Of a DNA stretch of 45,701 bases, positions 96 through 45,701 are shown one piece after another. The stretch is from the IMG/VR virus record IMGVR_UViG_3300045988_044939; one strand, written 5' to 3'. The notes below the pieces were generated by a model that saw only the letters and a program-made list of their open reading frames with translations, had not been told where the DNA came from and did not search any database. The translations under genes were made by a program, and so were the position numbers. The stretch comes from a virus. Position 1 is the first letter of the stretch, and the number at the start of each line of letters is the position of its first letter.

Positions 96-169
96 TGTTT
101 AAATATGTTATTTTTATTATAGCATCGTTAAATTTAGTTGTAAATAGACGTTTTGAGGTGATTTATGAA

Positions 170-490
170 ATGAAAATAATCAAAAATATACTAATTATAA
201 TAGGAGCTGTGCTTTTGCTTAATTACATTGTTTATTTACCAATGTGTGTAGACGATTATATCCGTGAAGAGTCAGAAGTGTATTCTGTCCAAAATGCGTA
301 CAGATCTTCTACCCTACATAAGAATAGCGCCCATGAAATAAAGCAGACCATGCTGCCGTTTTTATTCGTCCTGCCGCTAAACAGAAAAGACTATATCTTT
401 GATGTTACGAATAATTTCTATGCAATCATAAATATATCGGTGTATATCTGGCAGTTGCCAAGAGCAAACATTAGTGATATAATGGCATGA
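170..490 (+). CDS. small membrane protein, function unknown
   Basis: ORF 83..490 opens on TTG. An in-frame ATG at 170 lies 9 nt after GAGGTG (155-160). N-terminus MKIIKNILIIIGAVLLLNYIVYL is a TM helix. Confidence 0.55.
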   Translation: MKIIKNILIIIGAVLLLNYIVYLPMCVDDYIREESEVYSVQNAYRSSTLHKNSAHEIKQTMLPFLFVLPLNRKDYIFDVTNNFYAIINISVYIWQLPRANISDIMA

Positions 491-571
491 AACGAACTAA
501 TGTTCGGTTATATTTCCCGCAGCCGAACATATACTGTAGTGTAGATGGTAGTTGTGATAGGGAGGGTTATT

Positions 572-670
572 ATGGATTATAAGAAAGAGATTATTGAGAT
601 GGTTGAAAAATGCACGAATAATCATTGGATAGAAGTGATTTATATATTTGTGAAAAGGCTAATCGGATAA
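572..670 (+). CDS. 32-aa peptide MDYKKEIIEMVEKCTNNHWIEVIYIFVKRLIG, unknown function
   Basis: ATG 572 preceded by GGGAGGG (560-566), stop TAA 668-670, immediately followed by a strong terminator. Too short for the ORF track. Confidence 0.45.
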   Translation: MDYKKEIIEMVEKCTNNHWIEVIYIFVKRLIG

Positions 671-674
671 CATT

Positions 675-717
675 AAAAAAGACAAGGGTTTGCGCATTGC
701 CCTTGTCTTTCTTTTTA
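675..717. terminator. bidirectional rho-independent terminator
   Basis: AAGACAAGGG (679-688) pairs with CCCTTGTCTT (700-709). It is flanked by an A-run (675-680) and a T-run (710-716), between convergent genes. Confidence 0.8.
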
Positions 718-1077
718 CTTATTAGAAATCATGTCAATAAGTTTTTCTAAATTGTCCCATCCCTCATCATCCAATCTGGCTAATGCAGACACGAGACGGT
801 GTCGGAAAGAATCTTCTCCAGATTTCATTACGTCTGCAAGCATGGCAGAAATTTGTTTGTCTTTAATTCCGGGTACAAACATATTTCCTTTTCCTGTTCT
901 GAGCCATTCTTCACTCACTCCAAACTCTCTGCATATAGATTTGATAACAGCATCTGTTGGATTTCTTAAACCAGTTTCATAATTAGTAATGGTATTTCCC
1001 TTTACTCCAATTATGTCTCCAAATGCTGTCTGAGTGAGATTCTGGGATTTGCGCACTTGTTTGATTCTGTCTTTCAC
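715..1077 (-). CDS. XRE/cI-like HTH repressor (no peptidase domain)
   Basis: N-terminus IKQVRKSQNLTQTAFGDIIGVKGNTITNYETGLRNP is a classic HTH_3 motif. GTG start after GGAGGTGAGG. Divergent from the early rightward promoter. Confidence 0.85.
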   Translation of the reverse strand: MKDRIKQVRKSQNLTQTAFGDIIGVKGNTITNYETGLRNPTDAVIKSICREFGVSEEWLRTGKGNMFVPGIKDKQISAMLADVMKSGEDSFRHRLVSALARLDDEGWDNLEKLIDMISNK

Positions 1078-1097: not shown

Positions 1098-1176
1098 AAT
1101 ATATCATAAAAAACTCACAAAGTCAATATTTAGCGTTGACATATAACTCACATCGTGATATTATAAACTCACAAAG
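1098..1176. promoter_or_regulatory. immunity switch: leftward extended -10 promoter, rightward sigma-A promoter, three operator repeats
   Basis: Rightward promoter: TTGACA 1136-1141, 17 nt spacer, TATTAT 1159-1164. Leftward promoter: TGATATATT (reverse complement of 1098-1106). Operators: AACTCACAAAG at 1112-1122 and 1166-1176, AACTCACATCG at 1145-1155. Confidence 0.7.
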
Positions 1177-11010: not shown

Positions 11011-11109
11011 AATCATGTACTAACTACACAATAACGTGTCAGTTGATTACATGGGGAAAGTGAGGATGGAAAATGTTAATTAGAAGTCAGGGCAAGGAAA
11101 TTTTAGCTA
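11009..11109. repeat. about 100-bp dispersed direct repeat, copy 1 (with 13560..13660)
   Basis: The core 11031-11109 versus 13582-13660 has about 10 mismatches in 79 nt. Copy 1 keeps a relic of the last codons of the PAPS-reductase-like gene (TITCQLITWGK* versus TIACQLLTWGK*). Confidence 0.8.
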
Positions 11110-11594
11110 ATATGGAAGGCTCGATTGCTATAGAGATTTTAGGCGACGGTAAGGGACATGCAACCATGTATTGGAAAGATAGCTATGTGCTTGGGGTTTA
11201 TTCATCGAAAGAAAAATCCATGAAAGCACATGGGCTGTATTCGGAAGAGAATAAGAACGGATACAAGATTGACTTCTTTCACTGTCCGGTATCGCAGCTT
11301 GATGAAAAAGAACGAGAATACATCCAAAAAGCCATTGATGCCGGATGGATTGTAAAAAACAAGACTGGCGGTGGACAGGATGAAGGGAAAGAAAAGATTG
11401 CTGATTACCGACCGGCAAAAGGATATCGTGATGGCATCCAACAAGGCAAGAAAACTCTGGCCCGTGATTTATCACATATCATTGATACTCATTTGCAAAT
11501 TACCCTGAAGCCAGAAAAGCAGCACAATAAAACTTCAATCAAAGCTTTTGAGAAATTTAGAGAAATGCTTGATGAAAGGAACTACGAGAAATGA
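11073..11594 (+). CDS. hypothetical protein, MLIRSQ paralog 1
   Basis: N-terminus MLIRSQGKEILA... is paralogous to 13624..13971 (MLIRSQNKEVLV...). Confidence 0.6.
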   Translation: MLIRSQGKEILANMEGSIAIEILGDGKGHATMYWKDSYVLGVYSSKEKSMKAHGLYSEENKNGYKIDFFHCPVSQLDEKEREYIQKAIDAGWIVKNKTGGGQDEGKEKIADYRPAKGYRDGIQQGKKTLARDLSHIIDTHLQITLKPEKQHNKTSIKAFEKFREMLDERNYEK

Positions 11595-12903: not shown

Positions 12904-13614
12904 ATGAAAGTATGTTGGTTTTCAACAGGAATAAGCAGTTTTGTAGCGTGTTATCTGGCAAAGGATGTTGACGAGATTATCTATACTCATGTATCGAATC
13001 AGCATCCCGACAGCCTGAGATTCTTGCATGATTGTGAGAAGTTGTTGGGAAGAAAGATAACGATAATCCAGTCAGATAGGTTTGACTCAGTGGATGACGT
13101 GATGGAGTTCACGCACACAATGAATACTCCGTTTGGCTCTCCATGTACGAGATATTTGAAGAAAGAAGTAAGAAAAAAATGGGAATCCGAGCATCCAGAT
13201 CACCACACCTACGTATGGGGGTTCGATGTGAATGAAAAGAGCAGAGCAGAGAATACCTGCAAGGCTCTGAGCGATTACGACCATGAGTTTCCATTGATTG
13301 AACATGGATTAACTAAACAAGAAGCGCACGGAATAGCGGACAGGTTAGGATTGAAACGTCCAGTTATGTACGAATTAGGATATCCGAACAATAATTGCAT
13401 CGGATGTGTAAAAGGTGGCATGGGTTACTGGAATAAAATCAGATTGGACTTCCCAGAAGTATTTCAAAAGCGTGCGGAGCAAGAGCGTAGATTTGGAAGA
13501 AGCTGCATAAATGGCGTATTCCTTGATGAATTAGAACCAGACAGAGGAAACATAAATACAGAAATCATGGAGGACTGCACAATAGCGTGCCAGTTGCTTA
13601 CATGGGGAAAGTGA
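12904..13614 (+). CDS. PAPS-reductase-family / PP-loop (adenine nucleotide alpha-hydrolase) protein
   Basis: The N-terminal VCWFSTGISSFVACYLA resembles the SGGxxS PP-loop of phage PAPS_reduct-type proteins. There are also C-terminal Cys clusters (NNCIGCVKGG, EDCTIAC). Confidence 0.55.
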   Translation: MKVCWFSTGISSFVACYLAKDVDEIIYTHVSNQHPDSLRFLHDCEKLLGRKITIIQSDRFDSVDDVMEFTHTMNTPFGSPCTRYLKKEVRKKWESEHPDHHTYVWGFDVNEKSRAENTCKALSDYDHEFPLIEHGLTKQEAHGIADRLGLKRPVMYELGYPNNNCIGCVKGGMGYWNKIRLDFPEVFQKRAEQERRFGRSCINGVFLDELEPDRGNINTEIMEDCTIACQLLTWGK

Positions 13615-13660
13615 GGATGTAAAATGTTAATCAGAAGTCAGAACAAGGAAGTTTTAGTTA
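13560..13660. repeat. about 100-bp dispersed direct repeat, copy 2
   Basis: See 11009..11109. Spans the 3-prime end of 12904..13614 and the 5-prime end of 13624..13971. Confidence 0.8.
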
Positions 13661-13971
13661 CACTTGAACTTTTACTCGATATCGAAGTTTCAGGTGGAAT
13701 AATAAGCGCAAGAAGAGATATGGGATGGTGTTGTTTGCTCGGAGAATATTCTACCAAAGAAAAAGCCATGAAAGTACTGGATATGATTCAGGATGCATAC
13801 ATGGAATACAAATCTGGTGAAATTGTTGGCAATGGGCTGGCGGGATCAGCATACACAGGAAGCTATGATACAAAAGAAAGTGTGGCGCATGGAATTGCTG
13901 TATTAAAAGGCTATGGAAATGAGATAAGAAAATCAATCCTGTTTCAGATGCCAGAAGATTCGGAGGTATAA
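13624..13971 (+). CDS. hypothetical protein, MLIRSQ paralog 2
   Basis: Paralog of 11073..11594. Confidence 0.6.
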   Translation: MLIRSQNKEVLVTLELLLDIEVSGGIISARRDMGWCCLLGEYSTKEKAMKVLDMIQDAYMEYKSGEIVGNGLAGSAYTGSYDTKESVAHGIAVLKGYGNEIRKSILFQMPEDSEV

Positions 13972-17579: not shown

Positions 17580-17593
17580 GCACAAAATTCCTC

Positions 17594-17633
17594 AAACATG
17601 TACCACAACTTTTCCACTGACCTGTGATAGAAT
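17594..17633 (+). promoter_or_regulatory. late-promoter-like motif, copy 1
   Basis: AAACATGTACCACAACTTTT (17594-17613) is identical to 26402-26421. The extended -10 TGATAGAAT sits at the same 34-nt offset as in copy 2. Confidence 0.6.
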
Positions 17634-17686
17634 ATACTCAGAAGTGTTACTATGGGGTTTTATAGCTTAATTCAGAAAGGATATGA

Positions 17687-23081: not shown

Positions 23082-23252
23082 CTATTTTTTAATATCTTCT
23101 TTTACAATTCTCTCAAGCAAACTAATAACATACTCTGGAGGATTACGTTTACCACCCTCCCAGTTTTCAATTGTTCTTTTAGGAATTTTGTATTTATCGG
23201 AAAAAGCCTGTTGGCTTAATCCAGAAAATGAACGAATTTCTTTGAACTTCAT
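23082..23252 (-). CDS. 56-aa XRE-type HTH protein (Aca-like or antitoxin-like)
   Basis: MKFKEIRSFSGLSQQAFSDKYKIPKRTIENWEGGKRNPPEYVISLLERIV. ATGA overlap with the upstream gene. Confidence 0.7.
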   Translation of the reverse strand: MKFKEIRSFSGLSQQAFSDKYKIPKRTIENWEGGKRNPPEYVISLLERIVKEDIKK

Positions 23253-23608
23253 TCTTCTTCCTCCTCTTCACCATCTTTTAACGCGTCCAACCTTTCCTGG
23301 TTTATTCGATTCATTTCAGCAATCATAAATTTGATTGCTTCCACAAATTTTTCACCTTTTGGGCTGTCCACTTTTGCATACATGTAGCCCACACTGTTTA
23401 CGGAAAAAATCGTATCTTTTACTTTGGCAAATTCTCCATATTTCCCTTCGCTGGTTCCAATAGTCCAATATTTGCCACCATCAACAGGAATACTCAACCA
23501 TCCCTGGTCGTTAGGCGTTAGACAAGCTTGAACTTTTTCTACAGCCTTATGACCATATCTGTAAATCTCATTCTGTCCGGCGTTAATATAACGATAATCC
23601 TTATACAT
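23249..23608 (-). CDS. 119-aa acidic protein with poly-Glu tail (first gene of the leftward cassette)
   Basis: ATG after AAGGAGGAACAAAAAT. No family recognised. Confidence 0.65.
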   Translation of the reverse strand: MYKDYRYINAGQNEIYRYGHKAVEKVQACLTPNDQGWLSIPVDGGKYWTIGTSEGKYGEFAKVKDTIFSVNSVGYMYAKVDSPKGEKFVEAIKFMIAEMNRINQERLDALKDGEEEEEE

Positions 23609-23646
23609 ATTTTTGTTCCTCCTTAATTTTATATCTTCCCTGTTTC

Positions 23647-23682
23647 TGATATTATAATATCACTCAATGAGTGACATGTCAA
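23647..23682 (-). promoter_or_regulatory. strong leftward sigma-A promoter with two overlapping palindromic operators
   Basis: On the minus strand: TTGACA (complement of 23677-23682), 17 nt spacer, TATTAT (complement of 23654-23659). Palindromes are TGATATTATAATATCA (23647-23662) and TCACTCAATGAGTGA (23660-23674). Confidence 0.7.
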
Positions 23683-25839: not shown

Positions 25840-26394
25840 ATGAGAGATATTAAGGATTTATGCGCAAGAATCGAAGACGAGCTTTCCAAAATTGCTGATA
25901 ATGGACTGACCACTGGAAATCTGGATATGACGTATAAGCTGATTGACATGTACAAAGATATCAAGAATACACAGTACTGGGACAAAAAAGTGGAGTACTA
26001 TAACACTGTCCTTGATGAGATGCGTGGCGGCTATAATGACGATTACAGCGAACGCGGAAGAAAGCGTGACAGCATGGGGAGATACAGTGCAAATGACGGC
26101 AGAATGATGCCGGATTACGACTGGGGCAGTTCTTATGCCAGACGCGGTGAGCATTATGTCAGAGGACATTACAGCCGCTCTGATGGACGAGATGCTTATG
26201 ACGACTATATGACACAGAAACAGAGCTATCGTTCCGGCAAATCTGAGGACTGCAAGAGGAAGATGCTTGCCGCTCTGGAAGAACATCTCGACGAACTCAC
26301 TACAGAAATGAGCGATATGTCCAAGGACGCAGAGTGCCGGGAGGAACGCGATCTTGTTAAAAGATATGTGGAAAAGCTCCGGAATATGCTCTAA
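25840..26394 (+). CDS. charged R/D/Y/S-rich protein
   Basis: TAGGAGGTG RBS. N-terminal helical IEDELSKIADNGLTTGNLDMTYKLIDMYKDIK, then RD/RS/Y-rich low complexity. Confidence 0.6.
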   Translation: MRDIKDLCARIEDELSKIADNGLTTGNLDMTYKLIDMYKDIKNTQYWDKKVEYYNTVLDEMRGGYNDDYSERGRKRDSMGRYSANDGRMMPDYDWGSSYARRGEHYVRGHYSRSDGRDAYDDYMTQKQSYRSGKSEDCKRKMLAALEEHLDELTTEMSDMSKDAECREERDLVKRYVEKLRNML

Positions 26395-26401
26395 TTGGCT
26401 A

Positions 26402-26441
26402 AAACATGTACCACAACTTTTTGAAGAGTCTGTGGTAAAAT
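26402..26441 (+). promoter_or_regulatory. late-promoter-like motif, copy 2
   Basis: AAACATGTACCACAACTTTT (26402-26421), 11 nt, then TGGTAAAAT (26433-26441). Same spacing as copy 1. Confidence 0.6.
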
Positions 26442-26447
26442 GTATTC

Positions 26448-27034
26448 ATAAGGAAGATTCGTAAGTGATTACAGTCACTTGACATAGATGCATTTTTTCA
26501 TTGATTCCTCCTTTCTTGGGTACGTGTCCTTAATAGAAAATGCAGTGTTTAGCTAACACAAGAAGCATGAGGTTGAAAAGCGAATGCAATTTCCGACACG
26601 TACCATTGCCGTTAGTGCATGGCGGCATACCTCCTTGTGAGCATATAACTGAATAGTGGAATCCAACCCGTGCAGAGGTGCGCGACAGTATAGGCGGTGT
26701 TGACGTAGCCCGAAACGTCTCGTGTTTAGGCATAGCACGTTAAATACCTTGCTAACCCGGGAATCCGGGTTATGTGGAAAGTACGTTAATGGTAGACTGA
26801 CAGGGTCGCTCCCTGGGTTCCGGTTCGATTCCGGGCTTTCCGCTTTGATTCGGTTAGAATTACGCTGTCTGTATACAGGCGGTTTATGATTCGGCTGAAT
26901 TTGCATAGAAGCAGTTGTGCAGAAACCAATGATATCAATGGAAGAACAGAAACTACTTGCGACTATGCTCAAACAACCCATGGGAAAAGGTTATTGCTTA
27001 TCCTGTTGACTGGAGGCCGGTCCGAAAAGCATAA
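26448..27034 (+). ncRNA. large structured noncoding RNA candidate (ROOL/GOLLD-class), boundaries approximate
   Basis: About 0.8 kb has no RBS-bearing ORF and starts after a promoter motif. Exact helices include 26519-26528/26595-26604 (10 bp), 26754-26760/26765-26771 (7 bp), 26903-26908/26963-26968 and 26463-26468/26475-26480. It is flanked and interrupted by tRNA-like elements. Confidence 0.55.
26775..26843 (+). other. tRNA-like element embedded in the noncoding region
   Basis: Acceptor TGGAAAG / CTTTCCG and canonical T-arm TCCGG-TTCGATT-CCGGG. The D-arm is weak, and the anticodon arm CAGGG-TCGCT-CCCTG has only a 5-nt loop with a very short variable region. Confidence 0.35.
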
Positions 27035-27108
27035 TGGAATGTAGCTCAGTTGGAAGAGCGGAGAGCACATAGCTCTTGACGTCGCAGGTTCGAATCCTGC
27101 CTTTCCGT
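27035..27108 (+). tRNA. tRNA or tRNA-like (anticodon CAU if the loop is 7 nt), atypical
   Basis: Canonical TA-GCTC-AGTTGGAA-GAGC D-arm and GCAGG-TTCGAAT-CCTGC T-arm. The acceptor TGGAATG/CTTTCCG has one U-U mismatch and a U1-G72 pair. The anticodon loop CACATAG has A33 and a pairable C32-G38. No encoded CCA. Confidence 0.55.
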
Positions 27109-32934: not shown

Positions 32935-33435
32935 ATGGCTGCTGATGGCTCAGTCATTATTGATACTAGGATGGACACATCAGGTGTGCAAAACGGCGTA
33001 TCAGCAATCAGGCAGTCTTTTAACGGACTTGGCAGCGTAGTAAAAAAAATAGGTGTACTGATTGGCGGAGCATTCGCAATTGGGAAACTGGCCCAGTTTG
33101 GGAAAGAGTGCGTAGAGCTTGGCTCTAATCTGGCAGAAGTGCAGAATGTGGTCGATGTTACTTTTACAACCATGTCTGATAAGGTTAATGAATTTGCAAA
33201 GAACGCCATGACCTCTGCCGGTCTGTCAGAAACAATGGCAAAACAGTATGTCGGAACGTTCGGGGCAATGTCTAAGTCGTTCGGTTTCTCTGAGGCACAG
33301 GCTTACGATATGTCAACGGCTCTGACACAGTTAACTGGCGATGTGGCATCATTCTACAACATTTCACAAGACTTGGCTTATATAAAACTAAAGTCAGTTT
33401 TTACAGGAGAAACGGAAACACTTAAAGACTTGGGT
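32935..33435 (+). CDS. tape measure protein, exon 1
   Basis: Ends ...SVFTGETETLKDLG, inside the conserved TMP core motif. The TAA at 33436-33438 is intronic. Confidence 0.8.
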
Positions 33436-34335
33436 TAACAATTAGCTCCCTTACACAGCAATGTGTATTGAATAACATGGTGAACGAAGAAATCTTCGGT
33501 GTGTTGCTTTATGAGCAATGCTAACGGTAAAAGCCTAAAATTATTTAAAAAACTTGTGGTTATGACACCTATATGATATAATATTTATAGGAGGTGATTT
33601 CCATGAGTGAAGAAATTTGGAAAGATATTAACGGCTACGAAGGTCTGTATCAAGTAAGCAATCTGGGAAGAATAAAAAGTCTTGAGCGTAGATGCAAAGC
33701 AAAATGGTATACAAGAAAAGTACCAGAGAAAATTTATTCTCCTGCGCTTGATACTTACGGTTATCCAATAGTCTCTTTGCATAAAGACGGCAAAAAGAAA
33801 ACAATCACAATTCATAAATTGGTTGCAAATGCTTTTCTTAAAAAGCCGGACGGTTGCAATTCTATTAATCACATTGACGAAAACAAGCAGAATAATTGTG
33901 TTGAAAATCTTGAATGGTGTACTGTTCAAGAAAACAATGCTTATGGAACGAGAGTAGAACGACTAAGAAAAACTCAGCAAAGAGCAGTTCTACAATGTGA
34001 TTTAAATGGAAACGTAATCAAAGAATGGGAAGGAATGAACTTCCTTTGCAGAGAAACAGGATACGATCAAGGCCTAATATCTAAAGTATGCAACAATGTT
34101 TATAGGCATCGCACTGCATATGGATTCAAATGGAAATTTAAATAATCATGGTAATACCGTGCTAAGCATCGAAGAGTCTCAATAAGAGGCTCTTTTTTTG
34201 ATGAAAGTGTAACGACTATTCCGTAAGGAAGTAGGTTTAAGGTGAAATTCCCTATTCCGAAGTGCCATGCATCCAATTTGGATGAAGAGATAGTCTACTC
34301 CCCTAATAAATATCGGGAAACCGAGGGTATAAAGG
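33436..34335 (+). mobile_element. group I intron (IA2, T4 td-like core) carrying an HNH homing endonuclease ORF
   Basis: 5-prime junction TTGGGT|TAA as in td. The 3-prime core is TAACGACTATTCC..GGAAGTAGGTTTAAGGTG..AGATAGTCTACTCC and ends in G (34335). Joining the exons gives in-frame ...LKDLG-VVMTQSAL.... Confidence 0.8.
33603..34145 (+). CDS. HNH homing endonuclease (NUMOD4 + HNH_3)
   Basis: WKDINGYEGLYQVSNLGRIKS (NUMOD4) and INHIDENKQNNCVENLEWCTVQEN (HNH). ATG lies 6 nt after AGGAGGTG. Confidence 0.85.
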   Translation: MSEEIWKDINGYEGLYQVSNLGRIKSLERRCKAKWYTRKVPEKIYSPALDTYGYPIVSLHKDGKKKTITIHKLVANAFLKKPDGCNSINHIDENKQNNCVENLEWCTVQENNAYGTRVERLRKTQQRAVLQCDLNGNVIKEWEGMNFLCRETGYDQGLISKVCNNVYRHRTAYGFKWKFK

Positions 34336-36561
34336 GTCGTTATGACACAAAGTGCGCTTGACCAGTACGCACTGGCAAATGGTTATGGTAAAACCACATC
34401 TGCCATGACTGAGCAGGAGAAAGTAGCTCTCCGTCTGGCTTTTGTGCAGAAACAGTTATCAGCCGCATCTGGTGACTTCATCCGTACTTCTGACAGCTGG
34501 GCGAACCAAGTGCGAGTTATGCAGTTACAGCTGCAGTCTCTCAAGGCAACAGTCGGGCAGGGACTGATTAATATTTTCACGCCTGTTCTGAAAGTGATTA
34601 ATGTTCTGCTAGGCAAACTGGCAACTTTGGCGAATGCTTTCAAAAGCTTCACGGAGCTTATCACCGGTAAGAAATCCTCCGGTCAGACAAGCGGAAGTGG
34701 AGCAGGTCTCACAGGCGATGCAAGTGGCGTGCAGGATACGGCAGATGCTTACGGACAGGCAGCAGACAATGCCGGCAAGTTAGCAGATTCTACAGAAGAT
34801 GTAGCCGATGCAACAAAAGATGCGGCAAAAGCGGCGAAAGGATATCTTAGTCCACTCGATGAAATTAATCGGTATTCTACGCAGGATGCATCATCAACAG
34901 CAAGCAAAACTCCGTCGACATCCGGTAGCGGGAGTGGCGGCGGCGGAACATCTCTTCCGAGTGCAGTCAGCAACGTAGATTATGGAAAGATGGCGGAGGG
35001 TGAAACCGCTCTGGACAAAATCAGCAAATCAGCTGAAAAGCTTGCGAAGCTCTTAAAAAGGCTCTGGAAACCATTCCAGGACGCTTGGAAAAAAGAGGGT
35101 AAGAACACCATTGACGCGGCAAACATTGCCTTGTCGGGAATCGCAAAGCTCGCTAAGAGTGTAGGCAGGAGCCTTGTAGAAGTCTGGACAAATGGAACAG
35201 GTACGACAATGCTTACAAACATGTTAAGGATTGCTCAGAATGTGCTTAAGACTATCGGTAACATTGCATCCGGTTTTGCCGATGCGTGGAACAAGAATAA
35301 TGTCGGAACGCAGATTATCCAAAACATTGCAGATGCTCTTGTAGTAGTCATGCAGTTTGTTGAGAGGATTGCCGCAGATACGGCAACATGGGCGGCGAAC
35401 TTGGACTTCTATCCGCTATTGGAATCTATCAGCAATTTAACGAGCGCATTTGCTCCAATTCTGGAATCTATTGGAAATGTCCTTGAATGGATTTACAACA
35501 ACATTGTCCTCCCGATGCTGAAATGGGTCATTGAAGTAGGACTTCCGACAGTGATTAATTTAGTGTCGAAAGTAGCTACGTTTCTCGCCGATCATCAGTC
35601 GATCGTTGAAGCGTTCGGTGTGGCCCTGATCGGGGCGTTCGCAGCGGCAAAGATTGCGGGATTGGCATCGAGTGTTATTAAGAGTGTGTCTGGAATAGCC
35701 ATGTCTGCAAAGGGACTTATCTCGTTAATGACTGGTACAGGTGGCATCATGGGTGGTATCAAAGCTATTGCAACAGCTATCGGACCAGGTGGAGTCTTTG
35801 TTCTTGCAGTCGGCGCATGTATTGCGATTGGTGTATTACTGTACAAAAACTGGGACAAAATCAAAGAAATGGCTGGAAAGGTATGGGATTGGATTTCTAA
35901 TAAAACAAGGCGTTTTGTTGAGGATATTGGGAATAAGCTCAGAGGTCTAGCTACCAAAATGACGACCATTTGGGGGAACATGAAGGCCAGCGCACATCAG
36001 AAATGGAATGCTATATGGTCTACTGTTAGTGGCTTTGCTGAAAGAATCAAGAACGCTATTGTTGATAAATTCACATCCGCCAAAAACACTGTAGTCGATG
36101 TATTTAACGGAATGAGAGATGCTATCAGGTCTGTTCTGAACAACATCATAAGTGTTGTAAACGGGGCTATCAGTAAAGTGAATGGAGTTGTTAGTGCGAT
36201 TGAATCAGCGTTCTCTTTCGGCCCATGGAAAGTACCGACCCCATTCGGCTCAAAGACTATCGGATTCAGAGCTACTTTCCCAAGAGTGCCGACGGTCCCG
36301 TATTTAGCCAAGGGTGCAGTTATTCCACCAAGAAGTGAGTTCCTTGCAGTCTTAGGAGACCAGAAGCAGGGTAACAACATCGAGACACCAGAAGCTCTAC
36401 TCAGAAAGATTGTCCGAGAAGAAACAGCAGGACGGCAGGCAGGCGGTGGAAGTTACCGATTTACAGCGCAGATCAACCGCAGGACACTGTTTGACGAGAT
36501 GATGAAAGAAGCACAGATGAGACGAGATACAAGCGGTAGAAACCCGTTCGAGATGGCATAG
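34336..36561 (+). CDS. tape measure protein, exon 2
   Basis: VVMTQSALDQYALANGYGK... continues the TMP core, with a long helical and TM-rich body. Stop TAG 36559-36561. Confidence 0.8.
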   Translation, partial: VVMTQSALDQYALANGYGKTTSAMTEQEKVALRLAFVQKQLSAASGDFIRTSDSWANQVRVMQLQLQSLKATVGQGLINIFTPVLKVINVLLGKLATLANAFKSFTELITGKKSSGQTSGSGAGLTGDASGVQDTADAYGQAADNAGKLADSTEDVADATKDAAKAAKGYLSPLDEINRYSTQDASSTASKTPSTSGSGSGGGGTSLPSAVSNVDYGKMAEGETALDKISKSAEKLAKLLKRLWKPFQDAWKKEGKNTIDAANIALSGIAKLAKSVGRSLVEVWTNGTGTTMLTNMLRIAQNVLKTIGNIASGFADAWNKNNVGTQIIQNIADALVVVMQFVERIAADTATWAANLDFYPLLESISNLTSAFAPILESIGNVLEWIYNNIVLPMLKWVIEVGLPTVINLVSKVATFLADHQSIVEAFGVALIGAFAAAKIAGLASSVIKSVSGIAMSAKGLISLMTGTGGIMGGIKAIATAIGPGGVFVLAVGACIAIGVLLYKNWDKIKEMAGKVWDWISNKTRRFVEDIGNKLRGLATKMTTIWGNMKASAHQKWNAIWSTVSGFAERIKNAIVDKFTSAKNTVVDVFNGMRDAIRSVLNNIISVVNGAISKVNGVVSAIESAFSFGPWKVPTPFGSKTIGFRATFPRVPTVPYLAKGAVIPPRSEFLAVLGDQKQGNNIETPEALLRKIVREETAGRQAGGGSYRFTAQINRRTLFDEMMKEAQMRRDTSGRNPFEMA

Positions 36562-42968: not shown

Positions 42969-43141
42969 CAAAGCCTGGAAACCCGCATAAACAAAGGATT
43001 CTTGAAGACTTTCATTAAAATTAGATTAAAGAAAATGTCTTTGCGAAATCCCTTGTAAAATGCGGAAAAGCCAGTAAAATCAAGGCTTTGCAGACTTTCG
43101 TTAGAGTGATTAAGACATTTTAAAAACGATAAAAATAGGAA

Positions 43142-43166
43142 CGGTTAGTCACAGTTAGTCACAAAC
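43142..43166. repeat. tandem TTAGTCACA repeat, copy set 2 (overlaps the integrase stop)
   Basis: CGGTTAGTCACAGTTAGTCACAAAC. Confidence 0.75.
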
Positions 43167-44320
43167 GGGACTTTTATCTTTTCAATCTCCGTCCGGAGTT
43201 CTTCTAGGGTTCTGTGACCATACACAGCATTCGTGACATCGTTCCCAAACGAATGACCCAGCATCCTCTTCCGGTCGTTCTCCCGGACGCCGTATTTTTC
43301 ACACAGAGTAGAAAAGGTATGTCGACAATCGTGCGGCGTGTGCTTCGGGTTGCCGGTTATCCCCAATCGTTCCAGTGTAGGGTAAAACAGAGCGTTTCGG
43401 TGCTGCGTCTGGGAATAGATGCAGAGTTTACCGTTTTGCGTCAGGACCTTGCTCTTTGCAAACTCATATATGGCCGGATGGATTGGAACGATCCTGTCTT
43501 TTCCGGCTGCGGTCTTGATGCCACCCTGAAAATATCTCTCTTCAAGATTGGTCGTAAGCTTCAGGACCTCGCCAATTCTCCATCCAGAGTAACACATGAT
43601 TAGAATGAGCTGCGCTTCTGGATCATCGGTGTTATTCCAAAGGATTTGCAATTCCTCATCCGAAAAAGGTGTGCCATGTTCCGTATCATCATTTGCGTTA
43701 ACTTTTACATATAAAGCCTTGTTTTCCGACACAATTTCTGAATAAATGGCATACTTATACATCTGCTTAAAGAGGGTTAATATAATTGCTTTGCTTTGCT
43801 TCTTAAGAGTACATTTATCTATTACGTCTTGTAAATCGGGGGCTTTTAAATTTTCAAATGTGCGATTGTGTAATGCTTTACAGTTTGAGTAAGCTGTTTT
43901 GTATGATTCCATCGAGCTATAAGACGCTTTTGTCCCGTCTGGAAATTTCCATGCATAGAATTGCTCATATACCTCTGAGAACGTCAATTTGTGCGTTTCC
44001 GGGTGCTTTTCCTCTGTGCCCTTAAATGTATTGTAGTCTGACAGAATACGTCCTATAAGGGCGTCTGCGTCCGTTGTAGGGGCAATCTCAAGTTCCTTTT
44101 CCATACCCGGCTTGTACGTCCCAGCTTTGTAAGCTGTCAGAACGGCGAACCCTTTCAGATAGTCGTCAACGTAGCAGATCGCAGGCGGACGGATCGCTTT
44201 CCCTGTTGCGTCCAGCGTTGCCGGTGGGTGCACTGCATAGCAGTTTCTTCGACCCTTGCCAAGATAGCGGATAGAGCCGAAACTGTTTGGCAATTTCGGG
44301 TACTTCTTTCTTTTTGCCAT
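43145..44320 (-). CDS. int: tyrosine recombinase / phage integrase
   Basis: C-terminal HDCRHTFSTL...MLGHS...AVYGH carries the R-H-R-Y catalytic pattern. AAGGAGGAAAA RBS. Confidence 0.9.
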   Translation of the reverse strand: MAKRKKYPKLPNSFGSIRYLGKGRRNCYAVHPPATLDATGKAIRPPAICYVDDYLKGFAVLTAYKAGTYKPGMEKELEIAPTTDADALIGRILSDYNTFKGTEEKHPETHKLTFSEVYEQFYAWKFPDGTKASYSSMESYKTAYSNCKALHNRTFENLKAPDLQDVIDKCTLKKQSKAIILTLFKQMYKYAIYSEIVSENKALYVKVNANDDTEHGTPFSDEELQILWNNTDDPEAQLILIMCYSGWRIGEVLKLTTNLEERYFQGGIKTAAGKDRIVPIHPAIYEFAKSKVLTQNGKLCIYSQTQHRNALFYPTLERLGITGNPKHTPHDCRHTFSTLCEKYGVRENDRKRMLGHSFGNDVTNAVYGHRTLEELRTEIEKIKVPFVTNCD

Positions 44321-44333
44321 GATTTTCCTCCTT

Positions 44334-44367
44334 GTATAAAAACAGCCCCTGCCGTTAAGCAGGAGCT
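44334..44367 (-). terminator. terminator between the membrane-protein gene and int
   Basis: AGCCCCTGC / GCAGGAGCT stem (8 of 9 bp), followed on the minus strand by TGTTTTTAT. Confidence 0.55.
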
Positions 44368-44375
44368 AGTCTGGT

Positions 44376-44945
44376 TTACTCAATCTCGTCAATGTCAAAA
44401 GAATATCCAAGGACTTCTCCAACATCTGTGCATTTTCCTTTTAATGTTACTTTATCGCCTTTGGTAAGAGATGCTGCCTTTGATTTTTGCTCGTCGTTTT
44501 TAATATTACACTGTACGCCGATGATTTCAAAATCGCCGTCAGCTGTGAGGCTGATGTATTTTCCAGAGGCATCAATGTTGCTGAGATTTCCAGTGATCTC
44601 AAGATATTTGCCTTTGTATTTGTCAGATGCACCCATGGCGTTACTATCAAGATCGGACATCATATCATTAACAGAAACAGTAGTGTACTCGATTGGCGCA
44701 GCTTCTTCTTTTTGTTTAGTAGTAGTTTCTTTCTTTTCTGAAGAAGTAGCGGTTGCTGCGCTTTTATCTGATTCTGAATCACTTTCACCAGCTACAGCTC
44801 CGATGATGGCTCCGACAAGGATTATCAGCACAACCCATTTGAGCTTTCCACCTTTTAATTTCTTCCGGCACTGCGGGCAGACTTTAGCATCTGCCGGAAT
44901 CTCCGTTTTACAATATTTGCATTTCTTTGTTTTCTCTTCGCTCAT
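44376..44945 (-). CDS. zinc-ribbon, single-pass membrane protein with OB-fold (tRNA_anti-like) ectodomain
   Basis: CKYCK...CPQC ribbon, TM WVVLIILVGAIIGAVAG, S/T/E-rich linker, and a C-terminal KYKGKYLEITG...GDKVTLKGKC pattern. Confidence 0.7.
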   Translation of the reverse strand: MSEEKTKKCKYCKTEIPADAKVCPQCRKKLKGGKLKWVVLIILVGAIIGAVAGESDSESDKSAATATSSEKKETTTKQKEEAAPIEYTTVSVNDMMSDLDSNAMGASDKYKGKYLEITGNLSNIDASGKYISLTADGDFEIIGVQCNIKNDEQKSKAASLTKGDKVTLKGKCTDVGEVLGYSFDIDEIE

Positions 44946-44948
44946 GCT

Positions 44949-45653
44949 TTATTTCCCTCCAATGACGTAGTTTTCATATTTTTCTCTTATTTTCGCAAGT
45001 TCTCTTTGCCTGATCGGGACGATCGCGCCAGATGCCATCGTAAAAAAATGGCTTACTTCGCTTACCTCGTCCATATTAACTATATAGCTCTGGTGGCAGC
45101 GCAAAAATCTTCCGTCAAGACTCTTTTCGATATCATTGAGCTTTCCTCGTTCCTTGTGTGATATTCCGCACGTGCAATGGATCATTATGTATTTGTTCTG
45201 GCTTTCGATGTATTCAATATGCCGGAATTCAGCTCTGTGAAAGTAGTCCTTGTTCTTGATAGTAAGCGTTTTTTCACGGATATTTTCAAGCGTCTGCTTA
45301 ACAACTGAATACATTCTTCCATGCTCAGAGCCTTTAATGATGTAATGAATCGGCAGCACATCAAGTGCATCAAATACATATTCTTTGCGTTCTGTCCAAA
45401 AAGTGATATTTCCATAGTATCCGATTTTTCTTAATCTTTTGGCAATCTCTATGCCATTTTCTCCGTTAATGGAGACATCAAGAATTATTATGTCATACCA
45501 TTCACCATCTGAAACATCGTCGATCAAAGGCTTTCCGCTGGTGTAGGTGGCTAATGTATATCCACCATCACCATGCTCTTTTAGATATCGGTCAATGCTA
45601 TTTTTGAAAATCTCAATCCGTAAATTATCATCGTCACAAATCGCAATTTTCAT
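44949..45653 (-). CDS. LytTR-family response regulator (REC + LytTR), orphan
   Basis: REC: MKIAICDDD, IIILDV (acceptor Asp), HYIIKG (Lys). LytTR: FRHIEYIESQNKY...FLRCHQSYIVNMDEV...IVPIRQR. No histidine kinase is present in the genome. Confidence 0.85.
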   Translation of the reverse strand: MKIAICDDDNLRIEIFKNSIDRYLKEHGDGGYTLATYTSGKPLIDDVSDGEWYDIIILDVSINGENGIEIAKRLRKIGYYGNITFWTERKEYVFDALDVLPIHYIIKGSEHGRMYSVVKQTLENIREKTLTIKNKDYFHRAEFRHIEYIESQNKYIMIHCTCGISHKERGKLNDIEKSLDGRFLRCHQSYIVNMDEVSEVSHFFTMASGAIVPIRQRELAKIREKYENYVIGGK

Positions 45654-45701
45654 GTAAATCATTCCCTTGTAAACATTGTTTTCGCCATTTGCAAAAAAAA
45701 G

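Follow-up and report, generated by a model that had tools for sequence, protein, structure and literature searches.

A kinase-less REC-LytTR response regulator carried by temperate gut siphophages of Blautia

From what partner could a response regulator receive its phosphoryl group when the genome that encodes it supplies no histidine kinase? The question is raised by the IMG/VR virus record IMGVR_UViG_3300045988_044939, whose whole stretch of 45,701 nucleotides (here called the window) is the genome of a temperate siphophage, 45,606 bp long and of 42% GC when its ends are counted once. On the minus strand, at 44949-45653, the window encodes a 234-residue protein in which a receiver (REC) domain is followed by a LytTR DNA-binding domain. 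The original prediction, drawn from the letters alone, saw in it an orphan response regulator of the lysogeny module that could couple the lysis-lysogeny decision or the expression of accessory genes (morons) to a host kinase or quorum-sensing circuit. Here we present evidence that the regulator is a genuine and normally maintained phage gene, that it sits in an accessory cassette and not in the core lysis-lysogeny switch, and that it probably relies on a signaling pathway or phosphodonor of the host.

A REC-LytTR regulator encoded by the phage

The longest open reading frame (ORF) at this place covers 237 codons (44949-45662, minus strand), beginning with an in-frame ATG at 45662 that lies upstream of the real start. 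The latter is the ATG at 45653, which is preceded by the ribosome-binding site (RBS) AAGGGA and yields a protein of 234 residues, the length shared by all full-length homologues. Both domains score above the Pfam gathering thresholds: the REC domain occupies residues 1-120 (45294-45653; PF00072, 40.3 bits against a threshold of 30.2) and the LytTR domain residues ~139-225 (44979-45239; PF04397, 57.6 bits against 22.6). The receiver residues D7/D8/D9, the phospho-acceptor D59 (codon 45477-45479), T87 and K107 are all present, as the original prediction had read them, and this reading withstood a careful alignment: across 34 family members of 33-85% identity, D7 is invariant and D8, D59, T87 and K107 are each conserved in at least 90%, these five active-site positions being kept down to 33% identity. 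A departure from the REC norm is seen in the phage clade, where K107 is followed by Gly and not by the usual Pro.

An AlphaFold2 (AF2) model of the protein, with a mean pLDDT (predicted local distance difference test score) of 86.8, shows over residues 1-128 the strand/helix alternation of a (beta-alpha)5 fold, and its best match in the PDB is full-length ComE (4cbv, E 5.5e-15). The REC part of the model superposes on receiver structures with a template modeling (TM) score of ~0.8 and a root-mean-square deviation (rmsd) of ~2 A, and the LytTR domain on that of AgrA (4xqj) with a TM score of 0.85 and an rmsd of 1.5 A; 3bs1 and 3d6w are matched as well. By architecture and predicted fold, the protein is a bona fide member of the REC-LytTR family. 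It falls into PHROG 8810 (phrog_8810, E 5.7e-37), whose function is uncharacterized, and its NCBIfam scores lie far under the cut-offs of the named regulators (40 against 400 for AgrA, 58 against 375 for LytR).

The gene is under purifying selection, with a ratio of nonsynonymous to synonymous substitution rates (dN/dS) of 0.13 over 1132 pairs of the main allele, and the 234-codon ORF is intact in 86 of 88 related loci. Since near-identical phages (P0034, P0049, P0052 and P0058) carry frameshifted copies, the regulator is dispensable, yet it is normally maintained: clusters of intact regulators have from hundreds to thousands of members, the frameshifted clusters one or two. These observations bear directly on the idea that the protein acts as a transcription factor without being phosphorylated, or is a remnant in decay that no longer takes part in signaling. 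Such a view would accommodate the frameshifted copies, the Gly after K107 and the viability of relatives that have no regulator, whereas the low dN/dS, the preponderance of intact ORFs and clusters and the retention of the active-site positions in the most distant homologues all speak against it; we consider it highly improbable.

The frameshifts of P0034, P0049, P0052 and P0058 lie at four different positions and lead into the same long alternative frame; they represent either recurrent loss of function or assembly errors. Two short metagenome contigs, P0044 and P0062, join an XRE-type helix-turn-helix N-terminus to the C-terminal part of the regulator family, with replacement of part or all of the REC domain, and may be deletion fusions of a cI-like gene with the regulator or chimeric assemblies.

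The two ends of the window are a 100% identical repeat of 95 bp (1-95 and 45607-45701), which spans the first codons of the regulator and its 5' leader. The one point in favor of regarding the regulator as a host gene outside the phage, with the repeat as a duplicated attachment site (att), is the existence of this terminal direct repeat. Against this stands a prophage of Blautia fusiformis in which the ends of the window are contiguous and the repeat is present once; it is therefore the overlap of a circular assembly (an artefact or a permutation), placed within the 5' end of the regulator, and not an att duplication. The identities at the locus of this lysogen, strain CLA-AA-H217, are 97.5% for cI, 100% and 99% for the two small ORFs smORF2 and smORF1, 97% for the regulator, 94% for the Sie-like (superinfection exclusion-like) gene downstream of it and 96% for the integrase gene int. 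The homology ends near 43016, past int, and host DNA follows. Since the homology to the integrated prophage stops there, the phage attachment site attP may be placed at ~43000-43144, next to the tyrosine integrase gene identified by Pfam (43145-44320, minus strand), the third minus-strand gene of the region.

Other genomes place the gene in the same way. In Blautia obeum a 70%-identical allele is found in the order cI, small ORFs, regulator, membrane protein, integrase and host genes, and the regulator loci of Blautia prophages adjoin a tyrosine recombinase in some cases and a large serine recombinase in others, and are inserted at differing chromosomal sites. In IMG/VR, at least 446 contigs, mostly of ~45 kb and with varying permutation points, encode relatives of the regulator. 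One allele recurs in over 1500 assembly blocks. The regulator is thus truly phage-borne, its position in Blautia prophages being between cI and the integrase, as the original prediction had held in treating it as a phage gene; the host-gene reading is refuted by the prophage context, the single repeat and the occurrence in viral contigs, and what probability it retains is negligible.

An accessory unit beside the induction switch

The regulator belongs to a compact unit with the order promoter, regulator, Sie-like gene, terminator. Its near-consensus sigma-70 promoter (116-144, minus strand; TTTACA-17-TGcTATAAT, 11 of 12 matches, with TG) lies across the circular junction, leaves a leader of ~60 nt and is conserved in both regulator alleles. 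The Sie-like gene (44376-44945, minus strand) begins 3 nt past the regulator stop, is predicted to be cotranscribed with the regulator and encodes a membrane protein of 189 residues with a DZR zinc ribbon, a transmembrane segment and a tRNA_anti-like OB fold (PF12869, 1.5e-22) that is predicted to be extracytoplasmic. The assignment to the Sie-like family follows the profile match to phrog_8545 ('superinfection exclusion Sie-like', E 2.7e-20), the transmembrane segment and the place of the gene between int and cI; exclusion activity itself is a prediction from these features. A strong intrinsic terminator (44343-44368, minus strand; 11-bp stem with 6 GC pairs, followed by a T-run) closes the unit before int. 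The coordinates and gene order given by the original prediction are correct throughout, with the membrane protein gene 3 nt downstream, int beyond it, the small ORFs divergent and the cI-like repressor near.

Among 80 viral contigs that carry the Sie-like gene, the regulator is directly upstream in 58 and absent in 20, regulator presence being a matter that could be judged in 78. The 20 regulator-less contigs keep the Sie-like gene, smORF1, smORF2 and cI: in them the Sie-like gene and a smORF1 homologue are immediate, divergently oriented neighbors, with smORF2 and cI beyond in their usual order. A relative of this kind, devoid of the regulator, is GenBank MT835739. Because these 20 of 78 relatives share the same backbone, the regulator unit is an accessory cassette, or moron, and not part of the core lysis-lysogeny switch; it has its own promoter and terminator, it is variably carried and it lies outside the essential modules. 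With the regulator optional, and with smORF2 and the repeats of the early promoter tied to cI as set out below, the suggested coupling of the regulator to the lysis-lysogeny decision is not supported.

The composition of the unit is itself variable. In homologues of 50-53% identity the regulator makes up a unit by itself, abutting the endolysin gene, with a promoter of its own and a terminator upstream, and in other phages the slot downstream of the regulator holds a SHOCT membrane protein, a zinc-ribbon protein with multiple transmembrane segments, or nothing. An obligate partnership of regulator and Sie-like protein was therefore rejected, as the content of the slot varies and the Sie-like gene persists without the regulator. 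In the HdrRM and BrsRM systems of Streptococcus mutans, LytTR regulators devoid of a REC domain are cotranscribed with a membrane protein that is their obligate inhibitor. The present pair shares with them the combination of a LytTR regulator and a membrane protein gene, and differs in that the regulator has a REC domain and the membrane protein gene is variable and persists without it. Membership in a defence system found no backing either: PADLOC matched neither the regulator nor the Sie-like protein nor the smORFs.

On the other side of the intergenic region lie elements that belong to the phage backbone. smORF1 (170-490, plus strand), divergent from the regulator, encodes a 106-residue single-pass membrane protein and occurs, as other alleles, in regulator-less phages. 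It is followed by smORF2 (572-670, plus strand), of 32 residues, whose N-terminus MDYKKEIIEM is kept out to the most distant phage modules, and whose C-terminus varies with the adjacent cI allele; it too is found in phages that have no regulator; it is linked to cI and does not belong to the regulator cassette. smORF2 has a strong match to a promoter of its own (455-483, plus strand; TTGCCA-17-TGnTATAAT), with the palindrome CGAACTAATGTTCG (493-506, plus strand) at about +1 of the transcript. The LexA (Cheo) box of Firmicutes has the consensus CGAAC-N4-GTTCG. CGAACTAATGTTCG matches it perfectly; GAAC-N4-GTTC occurs only twice in the window, this site included. Of 165 copies from the fetched loci, 125 keep the arms and vary in the 4-nt spacer, which argues for a protein-binding palindrome, the predicted LexA box. 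A structured RNA in the conserved block 494-610 was rejected on the same pattern, and no Rfam match was found there; the conserved TGGCAGTTGCCA encodes the WQLPR motif at the C-terminus of smORF1.

The convergent cI-like repressor (715-1077, minus strand) has 120 residues and only an HTH_3 domain, with an RstR-like match; Pfam finds no S24 peptidase domain in it. Given a LexA box before smORF2 and a repressor without the peptidase domain, the more likely and most economical reading of smORF2 is that of a candidate antirepressor under LexA/SOS control. The primary induction switch thus appears to be the non-cleavable cI together with the LexA-box-controlled smORF2, and not the regulator. The smORF2/cI pair, as distinct from the regulator, is comparable to the LexA-controlled antirepressor induction of the Gifsy prophages and of Tum in coliphage 186; in the Gifsy type, a short non-cleavable repressor is paired with the gene of a small protein behind an SOS box (PMC3121763). 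It differs from these in that the small gene lies directly beside cI, is convergent with it and encodes only 32 residues, its antirepressor role being putative. A pre-peptide of a quorum-sensing system, which would have given the phage a self-contained means of communication (a possibility already rated weak in the original prediction), was rejected for smORF2: its N-terminus is hydrophilic, with neither a signal sequence nor a double-glycine leader, it has its own promoter and LexA box, it is linked to cI, and it is present where the regulator is missing.

The divergent arrangement of regulator and smORF1 suggests a further possibility, namely that the regulator is a second, SOS-independent input to induction. 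Once phosphorylated, it would activate the overlapping divergent promoter, and transcription through smORF1 into smORF2 would bypass LexA and lead smORF2 to inactivate cI. In both alleles the starts of the regulator and smORF1 are 122 nt apart, with putative promoters that overlap back to back; no strong terminator lies between smORF1 and smORF2; a smORF1 allele of ~32% identity is seen only in regulator-less contigs; and the covariation of the smORF2 C-terminus with the cI allele, as well as the want of a cleavage domain in cI, would fit. The layout is also that of the transcription factor-smORF (TF-smORF) modules of the VP882 VqmA-Phi and LuxR type, in which a phage-borne factor with a host-made input is divergent from small ORFs near cI: here the regulator starts at 47 (circular numbering), smORF1 at 170, and smORF2 lies further downstream. 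Experiments in Vibrio and Aeromonas phages have demonstrated the TF-smORF logic; there the factors bind their ligand directly and the smORF was shown to inactivate cI (Silpe et al., 2023; PMC10432266), whereas here the input would come by phosphotransfer, smORF2 is preceded by a LexA box and both smORFs occur in phages that lack the regulator.

Further evidence runs counter to this second input. Among homologous loci of 40-53% identity, some have no smORF1 and others have the regulator 2 kb away from smORF2; the intergenic region contains no regulator-type repeats, the one candidate repeat being unconserved among alleles with the same regulator; and the covariation of smORF2 with cI may be simple linkage. 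We regard it as distinctly unlikely that the regulator provides such an input. The more specific proposal, in which a regulator fed by a host kinase or Hpt protein drives a smORF1-smORF2 transcript past the LexA-controlled promoter and smORF2 then inactivates the non-cleavable cI, is in our estimate quite improbable too; if true, it would constitute SOS-independent induction of the TF-smORF type in a Gram-positive gut phage, with host two-component signaling and not a diffusible ligand as its input.

The early promoter on the other side of cI is surrounded by three AACTCACA direct repeats (at 1112, 1145 and 1166; 1112-1173, plus strand), spaced by 33 and 21 bp. The original prediction had recommended a search of the phage promoters for 9-bp direct repeats with 21-bp periodicity as a sign of regulator binding, and such a pair is indeed found at 1145 and 1166. 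In phages with other cI alleles and a regulator of 97-99% identity, the same three positions are occupied by TGTACAA, GTTTACAA, TAACACAA, AACAAGAA or AATTTCGA. As it is the cI allele with which the repeats vary, the regulator being constant, their interpretation as LytTR boxes was rejected, and they are predicted to be immunity-specific direct-repeat operators of the HTH_3 repressor cI.

Phosphodonor and possible targets of the regulator

The absence of a kinase noted by the original prediction was verified by a Pfam scan (E<=1e-3) of ~85 ORFs spanning the window, chosen greedily at a minimum of 40 residues and scanned as concatenates: it matched families of replication, packaging, head, tail, holin and endolysin proteins and no HisKA, HATPase_c, HATPase_c_5 or Hpt domain, nor any AgrB, AgrD, C39 peptidase or ABC exporter domain. 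Thus, the window contains neither a kinase encoded with the regulator, as a classical two-component system would, nor the leader pre-peptide, processing or export protein and HPK10 kinase that make up an agr, com or blp locus. The loci inspected around phage homologues of the regulator also lack an adjoining kinase. The likeness to the ComE/AgrA-type regulators, which comprises the REC-LytTR architecture, the closest structural match, the superposition on AgrA and the phospho-acceptor residues, therefore ends at the genomic setting, which in their case includes a cognate kinase and AgrB/AgrD or a ComC-type peptide.

Since the phage provides no kinase, while the phospho-acceptor site is intact and the gene is under purifying selection, dependence on a host phosphodonor is a reasonable inference, and to this extent the proposed coupling to a host signal stands; the part of it that would tie the regulator specifically to the lysis-lysogeny switch or to the neighboring small ORFs found no backing. 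The cellular relatives offer a clue to the kind of donor. The nearest of them, mostly from Oscillospirales, share 29-39% identity with the regulator, and an AgrC-type HATPase_c_5 kinase is encoded within 4 kb in 8 of 76 of their loci. An Hpt protein is found in 22 of the 76, in one case accompanied by a hybrid PAS kinase. These neighbors suggest that the ancestral partners of the regulator were HPK10 kinases or phosphorelays.

We therefore propose a reading to which we would give about an even chance: the segment 44343-45653, together with the promoter at 116-144, is a self-contained moron whose ComE/AgrA-type regulator is phosphorylation-dependent and is fed by a donor of the host. In a lysogen, the two-gene unit of regulator and Sie-like protein would be transcribed constitutively. 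A host donor would then phosphorylate the regulator at Asp59, as the phage supplies no kinase of its own; likely candidates are an AgrC-type (HPK10) kinase or a hybrid-kinase/Hpt relay like those beside the cellular relatives, possibly also acetyl phosphate. The phosphorylated regulator would modulate accessory phage genes, host genes or both, its targets possibly including its own operon with the Sie-like gene, perhaps the divergent smORF1, and/or genes of the host, and the Sie-like protein would act at the envelope. The net effect would be that accessory transcription of the lysogen is made conditional on a host signal.

Several observations weigh against this proposal. The frameshifted copies in near-identical phages make the regulator gene dispensable, and the 20 relatives in which the Sie-like gene and the two smORFs are kept without the regulator indicate that none of these three strictly needs it. 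As to DNA binding, no site for the regulator was found: the only clear 21-bp-spaced repeats of the genome are those that track the cI allele. Canonical LytTR sites (9-bp repeats with 12-bp spacing), as expected of a ComE/AgrA-type regulator, are not enriched in the genome, where the generic LytTR consensus pair has 1 match against 3.1 expected; the upstream regions of divergent phage homologues of the regulator have no motif in common, a perfect 10-mer repeat at 21-bp distance being found upstream of one homologue only (L097). The 'TTGTAAA' repeats close to the start of the regulator lack conservation across alleles with the same regulator. Finally, all relatives of more than 45% identity are phage proteins and the cellular ones reach at most 39%, which leaves a recent capture from a host unsupported and provides no recently acquired host paralogue that might hint at the partner; no specific Blautia kinase was identified as phosphodonor.

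It is on the question of targets that an alternative centered on the host has to be considered. Here, the regulator would act mainly on the bacterium, in the manner of lysogenic conversion, by rewiring a LytTR regulon (bacteriocin, agr-like or autolysis genes) or by serving as a phosphate sink or decoy for a kinase of the host. The moron architecture with its variable carriage, the failure to detect a target site in the phage and the conserved receiver chemistry are all compatible with it, as is the idea of 'listening in' that was put forward for phage LytTR genes (Hargreaves et al., 2014; PMC3901668). Against it, the LytTR domain is only ~30-35% identical to those of cellular relatives, none of the close ones coming from Blautia, and specific mimicry is therefore not indicated; a phosphate sink alone would not need a LytTR domain, yet this domain is as conserved as the REC domain. 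We consider a mainly host-directed action unlikely, though not far-fetched.

Other genome features and relation to known systems

A number of features elsewhere in the window merit mention in their own right. The tape-measure gene (32935-36561) is seemingly split into parts at 32935-33438 and 34342-36561 by an ORF with NUMOD4 and HNH_3 domains (33594-34145); as a sub-threshold match to a group I intron is found at 34091-34317 (23.6 bits, E 0.0015), the split could be due to an intron with a homing endonuclease. A gap in the head module holds a RAGATH-21 small RNA (75.3 bits against a gathering threshold of 70.3) and a tRNA gene (26519-26604 and 27035-27108). Within the plus-strand early region are embedded two minus-strand ORFs (1238-1774 and 2076-2282), preceded by the copies of a 47-nt repeat of 87% identity (1763-1809 and 2264-2310); it includes an RBS inside the inverted repeat CTCCC-N7-GGGAG and may be a regulatory cassette common to two morons. 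A 65-nt repeat of 72% identity (17580-17644 and 26388-26452), with the conserved core AAACATGTACCACAACTTTT 5' of an extended -10 element, precedes the terminase gene in one copy and the scaffold/capsid block in the other, and resembles a common late-promoter or activator site. In the structural region, a minus-strand ORF of 119 residues (23249-23682) has a promoter like the early promoter (inverted repeat I1, 78% match to 1136-1175). Two paralogous early genes, alike in their N-termini (MLIRSQ...), are marked by a 121-nt repeat of 79% identity (11023-11143 and 13574-13694).

Among cellular proteins, the regulator is comparable to CdtR of the CdtLoc of Clostridioides difficile, likewise an orphan REC-LytTR protein on an accessory locus of a gut Firmicute, whose activity needs the phospho-acceptor Asp although no kinase is known for it (PMC6699598). 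The difference is that CdtR is chromosomal and lies beside its toxin targets, whereas the present regulator is on a phage. Among phages, LytTR genes had been noted before in the work that proposed 'listening in' (PMC3901668). The agr cassette of phiCDHM1, with a kinase and a peptide and without a regulator, is the mirror image of the present case, and the C. difficile phage LIBA2945 likewise has an orphan REC-LytTR gene. The Ruminococcus phage NatCom_29429 differs in carrying the regulator together with a HATPase_c_5 kinase. Two observations on these phages stand by themselves: in LIBA2945 (L263, 1281-4711) the orphan gene comes directly after three antirepressor/BRO genes, and in NatCom_29429 (L264, 3794-6078) a 42-residue ORF, the REC-LytTR regulator and the HATPase_c_5 kinase follow in a row and may form a complete phage-borne agr-like system. 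The literature search found no paper characterizing a phage REC-LytTR regulator. The regulator thus belongs to an already catalogued, though uncharacterized, family, and the notion of 'listening in' is not new.

The reading of host signals by phages is known from ligand-binding receptors (VqmA-Phi, LuxR) and from peptide systems (arbitrium). The literature found contains no characterized case of a phage response regulator borrowing a kinase from its host. For the phages considered here, the analysis clarifies the surrounding switch, with its predicted cI operators and LexA-box-preceded small protein, and sets aside the 21-bp repeats at the early promoter, which had been a misleading cue. Human-gut viromes contain the regulator in abundance, selection on it is purifying, and the cultured lysogen Blautia fusiformis CLA-AA-H217 has it at 97% identity; whether a gut prophage makes use of host two-component signaling is therefore directly testable.

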